Both the position numbers and the translations under genes were made by a program. A stretch of 64,000 nt of DNA from an uncultured delta proteobacterium (GTDB taxonomy: Bacteria > Desulfobacterota > Desulfobacteria > Desulfobacterales > B30-G6): the NCBI GenBank assembly GCA_963823335.1, contig CAWGLD010000007.1:128001-192000 (forward strand). The letters are read 5' to 3'. Positions 26,482 through 60,036 of the stretch are shown one piece after another. Position 1 is the stretch's first letter. The number at the start of each line of letters is the position of its first letter. The notes beneath the pieces are model-generated. The model saw nothing but the letters and a program-made list of their open reading frames with translations, did not search any database and had not been told where the DNA came from.

Positions 26482-26627
26482 TAGAAGCCATCTCAAAAAA
26501 AGGGTTTTGGCTCAAGTTCAAGGCGGGCCCGAACTTCAACCCGCAGACATACTGAAGTATTCCGAGGAGTTGAAGCAAGGGACCAACACAGAAATTGGGT
26601 CAAAAAACTTTTTTGAGATAGCTTCTA
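26482..26627. mobile_element. Family B long hairpin element at the dnaX stop
   Basis: TAGAAGCCATCTCAAAA...TTTTGAGATAGCTTCTA; CAAGGCG at 26519, AACACAG at 26585. Confidence 0.8.
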
Positions 26628-28481: not shown

Positions 28482-28575
28482 TGGCGGAGAGAGAGGGATT
28501 CGAACCCTCGGTGCCGCTATTAACAGCACACACGATTTCCAGTCGTGCTCCTTCAGCCAGCTCGGACATCTCTCC
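28482..28575 (-). tRNA. tRNA-Ser(GGA)
   Basis: Cloverleaf with anticodon loop CTGGAAA, long variable arm, GTTCGAATCC, encoded CCA. Confidence 0.97.
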
Positions 28576-29874: not shown

Positions 29875-29964
29875 TGGCCGAAGGGGTGGGATTTGAACCC
29901 ACGGAACGCTTGCGCGTTCACCGGTTTTCGAGACCGGCTCCTTAAGCCGCTCGGACACCCTTCG
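29875..29964 (-). tRNA. tRNA-Ser(CGA)
   Basis: Anticodon loop CTCGAAA, long variable arm, GTTCAAATCC, encoded CCA. Confidence 0.95.
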
Positions 29965-38461: not shown

Positions 38462-38709
38462 TAGAAGCCGTCTTATAGGGGTTGTCAGAAAAATGTTCCG
38501 ATTGAGGACCTTTTTTCTGCTACAACCCCTTATGCCGCCATCCTATTTTCGGAACAATATTATGACAAGCGGTATAAAAATAGGATTTTGGTTCAAGATC
38601 AAGGCAAGGTTGAGTTTCAATCCGGAGGAATACTTCTGTATTTCGAGGAATTGGAACTCAAACTCAACGCAGAGATTGGGCCAAAAGACTTTTTTGAGGC
38701 AGCTTCTTA
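38462..38709. mobile_element. Family B hairpin at the ATPase stop, interrupted by family A MITE copy 4 (38476-38574)
   Basis: Removing the MITE and one TA restores colinearity with 26482-26627. Confidence 0.85.
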
Positions 38710-41656: not shown

Positions 41657-41834
41657 TTACGCGGATCTTTCACGCCTCTGATGGGTTCATTTACAAGGCA
41701 TTCAGGAATGCAGCTGTAGTATATTCTACTGCAAATTCCTGATAACGCGGTAAATGGGCCCATCAGAGAGCGCCCGAAGGGTGAAAGTTGACGAGCAAAA
41801 ATGCTCGCCAACTTTCATGAAATATCCGCGTTTA
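41657..41834. mobile_element. Family B hairpin (with side hairpins) at the pilY1 stop
   Basis: ACGCGGAT...ATCCGCGT ends; CAAGGCA at 41694, AACGCGG at 41744. Confidence 0.7.
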
Positions 41835-55019: not shown

Positions 55020-55146
55020 TAATTCGGATATTTTGACGTGCGCTTGCTGTAGCCGCAAGGCGCCGGACCATGAAGCTGTAGTTTGCTACCGCGAATGGTC
55101 CGTAACACAGCGGATACAGTGAGCTCGCTTCAAAATAACCGGGTTA
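55020..55146. mobile_element. Family B hairpin at the rseP stop
   Basis: TAATTCGGATATTTTGA...TCAAAATAACCGGGTTA; CAAGGCG at 55056, AACACAG at 55104. Confidence 0.75.
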
Positions 55147-58570: not shown

Positions 58571-59323
58571 TTACGTCTGATTAATTCGGCCGAATCTGCG
58601 TTCGCGGCTCTGGAAATCACCCAGTATGGCCATGAACTCTTCTCGTGAAAATTCCGGCCAGAGGGTATCCGTAACAAAAATCTCTGCGTAAGCGATCTGC
58701 CACAACAGAAAATTACTGATCCGCATGTCACCGCCGGTCCTGATGAGCAGATCCGGGTCACACATCCCCCGGGTGTATAAATTATCGGATACGATATCGG
58801 GGGTGATGGCGGAGGGATCCAATTGACCGTTTTTTACACGGACTGCAACCTGTTTCACCATCTCAACGATCTCGGCTCTGCCGCCATAACTGAGTGCCAG
58901 ATTCAGTGTCAGTCCCGTGTTCGATGCCGTCATTTCCATATTCCGCTGCAGCACGCTGCGGACGCCTTTCGGAATTCGGTGTATCTGTCCGATGGCATTT
59001 AAGCGAACGTTGTTTTGATGCATCTCCATTGCTTCGGACTTCAAAAAGCGCTTTAGGAGATCCATCAGGGCAGCAACTTCTGTTTTGGGCCGTTGCCAGT
59101 TCTCTGTCGAGAAAGCGTAAAGCGTCAGAATATTGATGCCGATTTCACAGCAGGTACGAACAATCCTTCTGACAGCATCAGCTCCTTTTTCATGTCCGTT
59201 GATGCGGTTCATCAAACGCTGTTTGGCCCAGCGTCCGTTTCCATCCATGATGATGGCGATATGAGAAGGAAGCGTTGAAAGGTCAGGATCACCAGGGCCG
59301 GGGTGAGCAATATTAGAATTCAA
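58571..59323 (-). CDS. uppS: Undecaprenyl diphosphate synthase
   Basis: HIAIIMDGNGRWA, FSTENW.RP, R.SNFLLWQ; probable TTG start overlapping the frr stop. Confidence 0.95.
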   Translation of the reverse strand: MNSNIAHPGPGDPDLSTLPSHIAIIMDGNGRWAKQRLMNRINGHEKGADAVRRIVRTCCEIGINILTLYAFSTENWQRPKTEVAALMDLLKRFLKSEAMEMHQNNVRLNAIGQIHRIPKGVRSVLQRNMEMTASNTGLTLNLALSYGGRAEIVEMVKQVAVRVKNGQLDPSAITPDIVSDNLYTRGMCDPDLLIRTGGDMRISNFLLWQIAYAEIFVTDTLWPEFSREEFMAILGDFQSRERRFGRINQT

Positions 59324-59870
59324 GAATTTCTTTCTCTTTTTCTTTGTAAATAACATCTACCTGCTTGATGTGGTCATCCGTTATTTCTTGAATTTGATCC
59401 TGACCCTTGAAGAATTCGTCTTCTGATATATCGCCTTCCTTCTTGAAACCTTTGATAAGCTCGTTGGAATCCCGTCGAATGTTGCGCATGGCGATCTTGT
59501 GCTCTTCACACACTTTGTGAATTACCTTGACCAGTTCCTTGCGTCTCTCCTCGGTGAGGGGCGGAATGGATATCCGGATGATCTTACCATCGCTCGAAGG
59601 CGTGAGGCCCAGATCTGACTTCAATAATGCCTTTTCAATTTCCTTGATAACCGATACATCCCAGGGTTGAATGGTAATCAGACGACTCTCAGGAACAGAC
59701 ATTGTGGCCATCTGGTTGAGAGGCGTCAGTGTCCCGTAATAGTCTACCCGGATACCATCCAGCAGGGACAATGAAGCTCGACCTGTCCGAACGCGTTTCA
59801 ACTCATTTTTCAATGCAGCAATGGTTTTCCCCATCCGCTCCGTTGTTTCCTGATAAATGTCATCCAGCAT
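59313..59870 (-). CDS. frr: Ribosome recycling factor
   Basis: RTGRAS, VDYYG, PPLTEERRKEL. Confidence 0.98.
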   Translation of the reverse strand: MLDDIYQETTERMGKTIAALKNELKRVRTGRASLSLLDGIRVDYYGTLTPLNQMATMSVPESRLITIQPWDVSVIKEIEKALLKSDLGLTPSSDGKIIRISIPPLTEERRKELVKVIHKVCEEHKIAMRNIRRDSNELIKGFKKEGDISEDEFFKGQDQIQEITDDHIKQVDVIYKEKEKEILEF

Positions 59871-59890
59871 CGGGTTTTTCCTTTTTGGGT

Positions 59891-60036
59891 TAGTGCCCAC
59901 CCACAGATGTGGGGCTTTGCGTGAGTTCAAGGCGGGCGTCAGATTTGAACCACAGGAATAGCGAGCTATTTTGAGAGATCAAATCATGGCGCCCAACGCA
60001 TAAATCGTGCAAAAGAGCCATTTGCGGGTGGCACTA
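59891..60036. mobile_element. Family B hairpin at the pyrH stop
   Basis: TAGTGCC...GGCACTA; CAAGGCG at 59928, AACGCAT at 59995. Confidence 0.78.

Follow-up and report, generated by a model that had tools for sequence, protein, structure and literature searches.

Five long hairpins in the window, by which we mean the whole 64,000-nucleotide stretch of DNA analysed here, belong on the evidence of their sequences to one superfamily. We consider this superfamily to be probably an ERIC/Correia-like family of TA-duplicating hairpin MITEs of Desulfobacterota, whose purine-starting ends rebuild the stop codon on which a copy lands. It is likely to be old and non-autonomous, each element consisting of one long hairpin. 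Its members insert into the TA of a palindromic W-Y-TA-R-W site and duplicate the TA. The genome carrying the window (G000) is a 4.37-Mb assembly in 11 contigs, and the nearest named relatives of its dnaX, at about 50% identity, are found in Desulfobacterales-type genomes.

Hairpin elements of the window and their relatives

The elements and the features attached to them lie at the following window positions.

26482..26627, plus strand: element 1, lineage A (TAGAAGCC-type ends), a 142-bp body with TA on each side
26519-26525 and 26585-26589: motifs CAAGGCG and AACAC of element 1
26625-26627: stop codon of dnaX (gene on the minus strand), which includes the right TA of element 1
38462..38709, plus strand: element 2, lineage A, left arm split by a nested MITE (lineage A parts 38462-38475 and 38575-38709)
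38474..38576, plus strand: MITE nested in element 2, about 100 bp, with its own TA duplication and unrelated to the hairpin family
38707-38709: stop codon of the T2SSE ATPase gene, within which the right TA of element 2 lies
41657..41834, plus strand: element 3, lineage B, with a core (41668-41786), an extra side hairpin in the right arm (about 41787-41822) and an outer stem
41832-41834: stop codon of pilY1, the right end of element 3
55020..55146, plus strand: element 4, lineage B, its right end being the stop codon of the M50 protease gene (55144-55146)
59891..60036, plus strand: element 5, lineage A (TAGTGCC-type ends), its right end being the stop codon of the pyrH-type kinase gene (60034-60036)

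A preliminary description of this DNA had placed the ends of the five hairpins on the TA of named stop codons, and coordinates, ORFs and Pfam domains agree with it. Every element ends, on the right, with the TA of a minus-strand ORF's stop codon, and the five ORFs encode DnaX, a T2SSE/MshEN ATPase, PilY1, an M50/PDZ protease (RseP type) and an amino-acid kinase (PyrH type). The single orientation reported for the five is likewise correct, the AACRC arm adjoining the gene each time, and so is the MITE nested in the second copy. In element 1, CAAGGC begins 37 nt from the left end and AACAC ends 38 nt from the right end, TA included. RNA folding gave −53 to −95 kcal/mol for four of the five elements, with z scores of −4.4 to −13.1 against shuffles, and a z score of −2.1 for the core of element 2 alone. 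The Rfam comparison suggested earlier matched the elements to no family: two tRNAs of the window pass the gathering threshold and none of the elements does, and with E values up to 10 nothing overlapped elements 1, 3, 4 or 5, the nested MITE drawing only a chance microRNA match (E 5.9).

Some observations concern the neighbourhood of these features. The right arm of element 3 contains an extra perfect hairpin (GTTGACGAGCA...TGCTCGCCAAC, 41787-41822), and a small GCCCGAAGGGT hairpin in the same element is common to several lineage B copies. The two tRNA genes recognised by Rfam, of 87–91 nt (28485-28575 and 29878-29964, minus strand), are by their length of the type with a long variable arm; the strand opposite them gives a spurious match to a plastid 3'UTR. 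The longest ORF downstream of pyrH (59313-59930) starts with TTG inside element 5 (59891-60036), so the true start of this gene probably lies further in. Gene callers may mis-set starts beside hairpin elements.

BLAST and iterative nhmmer searches found about 120 loci in G000, of which 99 are linked to elements 1, 2 and 5 (lineage A, 146 nt) and 21 to elements 3 and 4 (lineage B, about 127 nt); a third lineage is designated C. Gene-less, 125–172 bp long and present in many copies, the elements have the size and make-up of small MITEs. Under a relaxed pattern both motifs are present in 107 of the 120 loci, and arms in G000 most often measure 37 or 38 nt, with 29 copies each. A search for CAAGGCR and AACRC that required paired flanks gave 46 matches in G000, against 0–1 for each of five permuted decoy motifs, and the same search added four copies of lineage C.

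The preliminary description held that the stems share little sequence apart from those of the first two copies. The stems are in fact related: a covariance model derived solely from 20 lineage A copies aligns lineage B over its full length and brings the motifs into register (18 of 20 at E 1e-13 to 2e-3, on the right strand), and it scores one lineage C copy at 64 bits. Because the lineage A model extends to lineage B in this way, the shared motif pair and its spacing are at least partly inherited, besides any constraint on them.

A BLAST search with element 1 detected relatives in 23 of 41 related genomes, among them every one of the nine in the genus. By the model, full-length copies occur in 110 of the 151 sampled genomes of the class (61 of 78 genera), often with at least 20 copies each, and in 29 of the 151 sampled genomes of the phylum. 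Several single-contig genomes are among the carriers. Few repeat families of sulfate-reducing Desulfobacterota appear to be as widespread as this superfamily.

We also considered, and rejected, the hypothesis that the elements are coding. A 48-codon frame runs open through the whole element in the young TAGAAGCC subfamily (window 26483-26626), to which the open frame is limited. Since it is open in only 28 of 56 G000 copies and 8 of 36 copies from other genomes, coding is not the conserved feature.

Insertion at TA and residence on stop codons

That the hairpins are a mobile family with TA ends, as the preliminary description proposed, is borne out by sister species that are empty at the dnaX stop. 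The element is absent there from G001, G002, G003, G004 and G007, and the filled site in G000 differs from the empty one by 142 bp and a second TA, which makes a net insertion of 144 nt (48 codons). G003, empty, has the sequence GGT TAG TCC; in G000 the stop is rebuilt as TA+G. Terminal inverted repeats, here arms paired over their full length, together with a TA duplication read directly from filled and empty sites, are characteristic of MITEs. In G006 a lineage C copy adjoins the same dnaX stop (L092 about 2007-2135), and this stop is a repeated landing site, with three separate events. The stop of the M50 protease gene is occupied by an intact lineage B copy in G006 and by remnants in G001 and G005, while six other genomes of the genus have none. 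At the dnaX stop of G005 (L093) we observed a 20-nt mini-hairpin resembling two joined lineage A ends, perhaps a remnant of excision or deletion.

The target was derived from 56 copies with clean TA..TA ends among the 71 copies in which both arms reach at least 30 nt. It is the palindrome W-Y-TA-R-W: position −1 is C or T in 74% of copies, position +1 is A or G in 81%, and positions −2 and +2 are A/T-rich. Duplication of TA at a short palindromic target is a hallmark of IS630 and Tc1-mariner elements.

To relate insertions to genes we used crude, unannotated gene calls, namely the longest non-overlapping open frames of at least 90 codons (3,706 frames, 85% coverage). On these calls, element and stop codon have their TA in common in 24 of the 56 clean copies of G000. 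The expectation was 5.6% unweighted, taking random TA outside genes and in stop codons, and 7.1% (p 1e-13) when weighted by a target derived from the 32 copies not on stops. Stop codons are strongly over-represented among the insertion sites. The excess is also local: 24 copies are on stops and 14 lie within 60 nt downstream, that is 24 of 38 against an expected share of 26% (p 1e-6). Six other genomes hold 63 high-scoring copies, 49 of them with TA ends, and 20 of these 49 are on stops of frames of at least 70 codons.

The ends of the elements account for this tolerance. In most subfamilies the body begins and ends with a purine, and TA plus the first base reads TAG or TAA in either orientation; an element that lands on the TA of a TAA or TAG stop therefore does not alter the encoded protein. 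Removing the element gives back TAA or TAG in 18 of the 24 stop-sharing copies. In the remaining six, removal leaves TAT or TAC, so the stop was created by the element itself. A control MITE of the nested type in G000, which inserts at TA and has an end that gives TAT, is on a stop in 0 of 45 copies (18 lie within 60 nt), and the subfamily with TAC ends is on stops in 0 of 7 copies in the six other genomes. From the stop-sharing counts, the control MITE and the TAC-end subfamily, we conclude that the element can reside on stop codons by virtue of the purine that follows TA. Active targeting of stops, as first suggested, is not called for by the TAC-end result, which fits the survival of stop-rebuilding copies. 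The spike on stops is nevertheless sharper than survival would lead one to expect, and survival alone may not explain it. Single elements between convergent frames, with both terminal TAs serving as stops, were observed in another genome (L169 1501-1646) and also at L218, L250, L259 and L266.

The strand bias at stops proposed in the preliminary description holds in G000, where the AACRC arm lies beside the gene in 20 copies and away from it in 4 (p 0.0015). It does not hold for the six other genomes pooled (15 vs 9, p 0.31), among which the split was 6 vs 2 in G172, 5 vs 1 in G106, 2 vs 4 in G052 and G124 together, and 2 vs 2 in G112. Taking the best element per genome in 36 genomes, the stop orientation was 6 vs 4. 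The orientation bias holds for subfamilies with TAGAAG-type ends; it is not general, and is weak or absent elsewhere.

Away from stops the setting is mixed. Between co-directional genes the two orientations split 35 vs 22, and 30 loci are flanked by convergent gene ends and 20 by divergent gene starts. GC skew revealed no link with the replication strand (50 vs 57). Parts of the region occur in 17 metatranscriptome runs, as assembled contigs that carry no strand, ends or expression level. Contigs from four of these runs were compared with the window. One of them leaves the window sequence exactly at 55144, the edge of element 4, but its other flank differs too, and we attach no meaning to this break.

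Fold of the CAAGGC strand and possible modes of mobilisation

The fold was analysed in an alignment of 36 copies from about 33 genomes. Outer arms vary between subfamilies (TAGAAGCC, TAGTGCCC, TTGAGACC, AAGGCCAC and others), and the length is 144–146 nt in 35 of the 36 copies; the fixed distance from loop to end reported for the five hairpins is kept across these divergent arms. Compensatory changes occur in 36 of the 46 predicted pairs, and in 27 of 30 pairs of lineage B, counts that overstate the number of independent events because the sequences are kin. Paired cells amount to 95.7%, compared with 78.5% after shuffling (0 of 500 shuffles reach the observed value) and at most 52.7% when the partners are slid. 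The fixed features are UCAAGG opposite ACRCAG, a second purine-rich loop (CCNCAGG opposite YGAGGA in lineage A, UGAAG opposite CGAA in lineage B), two tandem G·U steps, and the length. One pair within the first loop covaries, being G-C in 18 copies and A-U in 15, so that CAAGGCG/CAAC alternates with CAAGGAA/TGAC. The motif pair of the preliminary description is thus real, as the decoy comparison indicates, without being invariant.

The fold is also asymmetric between strands. Wobble pairs favour the CAAGGC strand, with G·T outnumbering A·C by 159 to 18 in lineage A (59 to 18 once its four conserved wobble pairs, G·U on this strand, are set aside) and by 61 to 12 in lineage B. Folded as RNA, the CAAGGC strand is the better of the two in 63 of 71 copies, by a mean of 9.4 kcal/mol. 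Extra small hairpins occur on one arm only and at fixed places, in 14 + 14 copies. We conclude that selection acts on the central domain (the loop CAAGGN/ACRCAG, the second loop, the tandem G·U and the fixed length) as a fold formed by the CAAGGC strand alone. A strand-specific fold is odd for a cut-and-paste element, and it is odd as well that on stop codons the mRNA mostly carries the strand other than CAAGGC.

The two side hairpins were seen in lineage A only, one being a 26-nt insert after CCGCAGG near the tip (14 copies) and the other an insert of about 25 nt, CCCGCAAAAAGAGCGGG, in the left arm (14 copies). The copies concerned are G000 C1:118812, C7:41597 and 12 more, and C1:279623, C5:301757 and 12 more. 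The presence of both in some copies suggests modular gain or recombination between copies. Two readings of the loops were tried and rejected. In a K-turn, the strand meant to be unbulged would have four unpaired bases. A bridge-RNA (IS110) guide fails since the loops are invariant and the targets share YTAR alone, so the loops cannot be guides.

A long version containing a transposase, for which the preliminary description had recommended a search, is lacking in G000: profiles of half-elements detected no autonomous version, left-right distances being below 160 nt except for chance pairs. The contig ends of G000, taken as possible collapsed insertion sequences, have no element in common, and a plasmid collection gave no match to the hairpin family. 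IS630 (PF13358) is represented in G000 by two broken copies only, and none of the IS630-type copies in the 41 related genomes has the ends of the hairpin superfamily. When the five elements were compared by blastn-short with 30 DDE_3 loci, the matches were to the nested MITE, plus one flanking copy of a hairpin element. The nested MITE itself, with 45 near-full copies in G000, has ends matching an intact 1206-bp IS630-family (DDE_3) element with a 352-aa frame, found twice in G004 (L107 814-2019); intact IS630-type copies in further relatives likewise share their ends with this MITE. Y1 (HUH) transposase domains (PF01797) are present in 40 of the 41 relatives whether or not the element is, and are therefore uninformative; by coordinate comparison, the four listed Y1 loci of G000 have no flanking hairpin elements. 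A weak Y1 domain was also observed at the start of 330–460-aa frames at seven G000 loci (C7:406630-406968, C2:74509-74832, C1:783095-783418 and others), and similar frames occur in 40 of the 41 related genomes.

The reading we favour, an ERIC/Correia-like family of MITEs, would involve a double-strand cut-and-paste transposase that acts in trans and is of the IS630/Tc1-mariner type or close to it. Stop-rebuilding copies would survive and might even be favoured, and the family would in this way pile up on stop codons. A transcribed element would act as a 3' hairpin, and since the two orientations would differ in stability and loops, this could explain the orientation bias at stops, as has been proposed for ERIC. 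Several observations sit badly with this reading. Classical MITE families keep their terminal repeats and vary inside, whereas here the arms vary and the inside is kept. A double-strand enzyme leaves the one-strand wobble bias and the one-arm extra hairpins unexplained, and no transposase is tied to the hairpin family in G000, the 41 relatives or the plasmids. Another possibility is an element read through its structure, in which the CAAGGC single strand, as DNA or RNA, would be moved or copied by an enzyme that recognises the folded hairpin by its loops and works on the TA ends, a set distance away. In the manner of REP/RAYT, IS200/IS605 ends and integron attC, the arms would be free to change as long as they pair. 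This possibility, which we regard as unlikely, draws support from arms that differ between subfamilies with pairing, the 144–146 nt length (35/36) and loops all kept, from the covarying loop pair (G-C 18, A-U 15), from the wobble bias (159 vs 18 and 61 vs 12) with its four conserved G·U, from side hairpins confined to one arm (14 + 14 copies), from a lineage A model that aligns lineage B end to end though the arms share little sequence, and from the failure to find a matching DDE transposase. It conflicts with the 2-bp duplication and palindromic target, which are marks of double-strand DDE transposition, and with the even distribution over replication strands (50 vs 57), unlike IS200/IS605; Y1 (HUH) domains occur in 40 of 41 relatives regardless and no candidate enzyme was found, and the covariation counts, coming from kin sequences, overstate independent events. 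A more specific version, close to the original proposal, has an undescribed enzyme or host factor read the loops and tandem G·U of the folded CAAGGC strand, act about 37 nt away at merely paired TA ends, and prefer stop codons; we find this distinctly doubtful. A protein that measures from the loop to the TA ends, as originally put forward, might account for the constant spacing, but common descent with few indels fits it equally.

The copies could instead be kept mainly as RNA at the 3' ends of genes, as a domesticated module for which mobility was only the route of arrival, whether for exonuclease protection, as an RNase III/E processing site, or as a site for a regulator that binds the GGA-bearing, purine-rich loops. 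The concentration of copies on stop codons, their skewed orientation there in three genomes and the phylum-wide conservation of the fold with its conserved G·U pairs, typical of RNA, would suit such a role, and effects of ERIC and Correia on mRNA stability via RNase E or RNase III are described in passages of PMC2229807, PMC3184786 and PMC10969869. We judge it improbable all the same, for on stops the mRNA is mostly the weaker strand (the CAAGGC strand being better in 63/71, with a mean gain of 9.4 kcal/mol), 20 loci have divergent gene starts on either side, co-directional pairs split 35 vs 22, and sister species differ in their insertions, which are young, the dnaX copy occurring in G000 alone; the RNA contigs of the region carry no strand or end information that would speak for it. 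As for ordinary gene-end terminators that look alike by chance, the hairpins do sit directly behind genes, but copy number and empty sites refute this explanation, to which we give next to no credence: 120 loci have common sequence, sister species show empty sites with TA duplication, decoy motifs gave 0–1 matches vs 46, 20 loci between divergent gene starts occupy no terminator position, and no U-tract was noticed 3' of the stem in the five elements.

Comparison with known systems

The family and its strictly kept fold appear to be undescribed, whereas TA-duplicating hairpin MITEs on stop codons are of an already known kind. Searches of open-access full text for such a family in Desulfobacter-type bacteria, of Rfam, and of a prokaryotic MITE review for these bacteria brought up no description of it. 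The stop-rebuilding ends, set against the TAC subfamily and a control MITE that stays off stops, offer a natural data set on the tolerance of compact genomes for mobile DNA. The puzzle is a strand-specific, phylum-wide fold in an otherwise cut-and-paste-like MITE, whose solution would reveal either a novel mode of transposon DNA recognition or an RNA module reusable at gene ends. If a structure-reading enzyme proved true, it would represent a new class of structure-guided transposition across a phylum. At a practical level, masking the family would rid the annotation of these genomes of many spurious small ORFs and RNA-motif candidates.

Systems in which structure is kept, sequence drifts and one strand matters (REP/REPIN-RAYT, IS200/IS605 ends and attC) resemble the superfamily in these respects, the wobble bias being the sign of strand here. 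These systems are not known to make a TA duplication. REP/REPIN-RAYT repeats are short palindromes tagged GTAG or CGTC, inserted without duplication and flanking a Y1 gene; in the hairpin superfamily TA is duplicated and the Y1 loci are unflanked. PATEs derived from IS200/IS605 are oriented by replication strand and also lack a duplication, in contrast to the 50 vs 57 split and duplicated TA found here. Integron attC sites come in cassette arrays with an integrase and R''/R' boxes, whereas the present copies are single, dispersed over all large contigs and situated behind housekeeping genes. Rickettsia palindromic elements (RPE) are palindromic and able to sit in frame inside genes, which the net insertion of 48 codons recalls; the superfamily differs in that its frame is open in only the 28/56 and 8/36 copies given above.

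Among TA-targeting elements, passages in PMC2229807, PMC3184786 and PMC10969869 report TA flanks, a 3' location and an RNase E effect for ERIC, cleavage by RNase III of transcripts carrying Correia elements, and a link to IS630 for RUP. RUP of Streptococcus pneumoniae and other IS630-derived MITEs resemble the superfamily in the TA target that a review gives for them. The nested MITE (38474-38576) is clearly of the IS630-derived type, with ends matching the G004 element; the hairpin superfamily differs from such MITEs, no IS630 copy with matching ends being present in the 41 related genomes. Correia/NEMIS elements of Neisseria share with it a TA target, long inverted repeats and a hairpin RNA. 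We know of no transposase for Correia elements, and the same holds for the superfamily here. According to a review, Correia elements have an IHF site and promoter-like ends, neither of which was noticed in the hairpin superfamily.

The closest likeness is to ERIC/IRU of Enterobacteriaceae, which are gene-less hairpins of about 127–146 bp with TA flanks, present in many copies and often at the 3' ends of genes, with which they are co-transcribed. According to De Gregorio et al. 2005, ERIC in Yersinia reportedly duplicates TA and forms an RNA hairpin, its copies that overlap or abut stops prefer one orientation, and it is tied to RNase E and mRNA stability. The superfamily behaves in the same manner, with TA flanks, a hairpin, and overlap with stops in a preferred orientation, so the principle is not new, given the behaviour ascribed to ERIC in Yersinia. 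The likeness is one of behaviour and not of membership; no resemblance to ERIC in sequence was noticed, and the superfamily belongs to another phylum. Beside ERIC, the superfamily may be set apart by the compensatory divergence of its arms, its fixed central loops and the wobble bias towards one strand.
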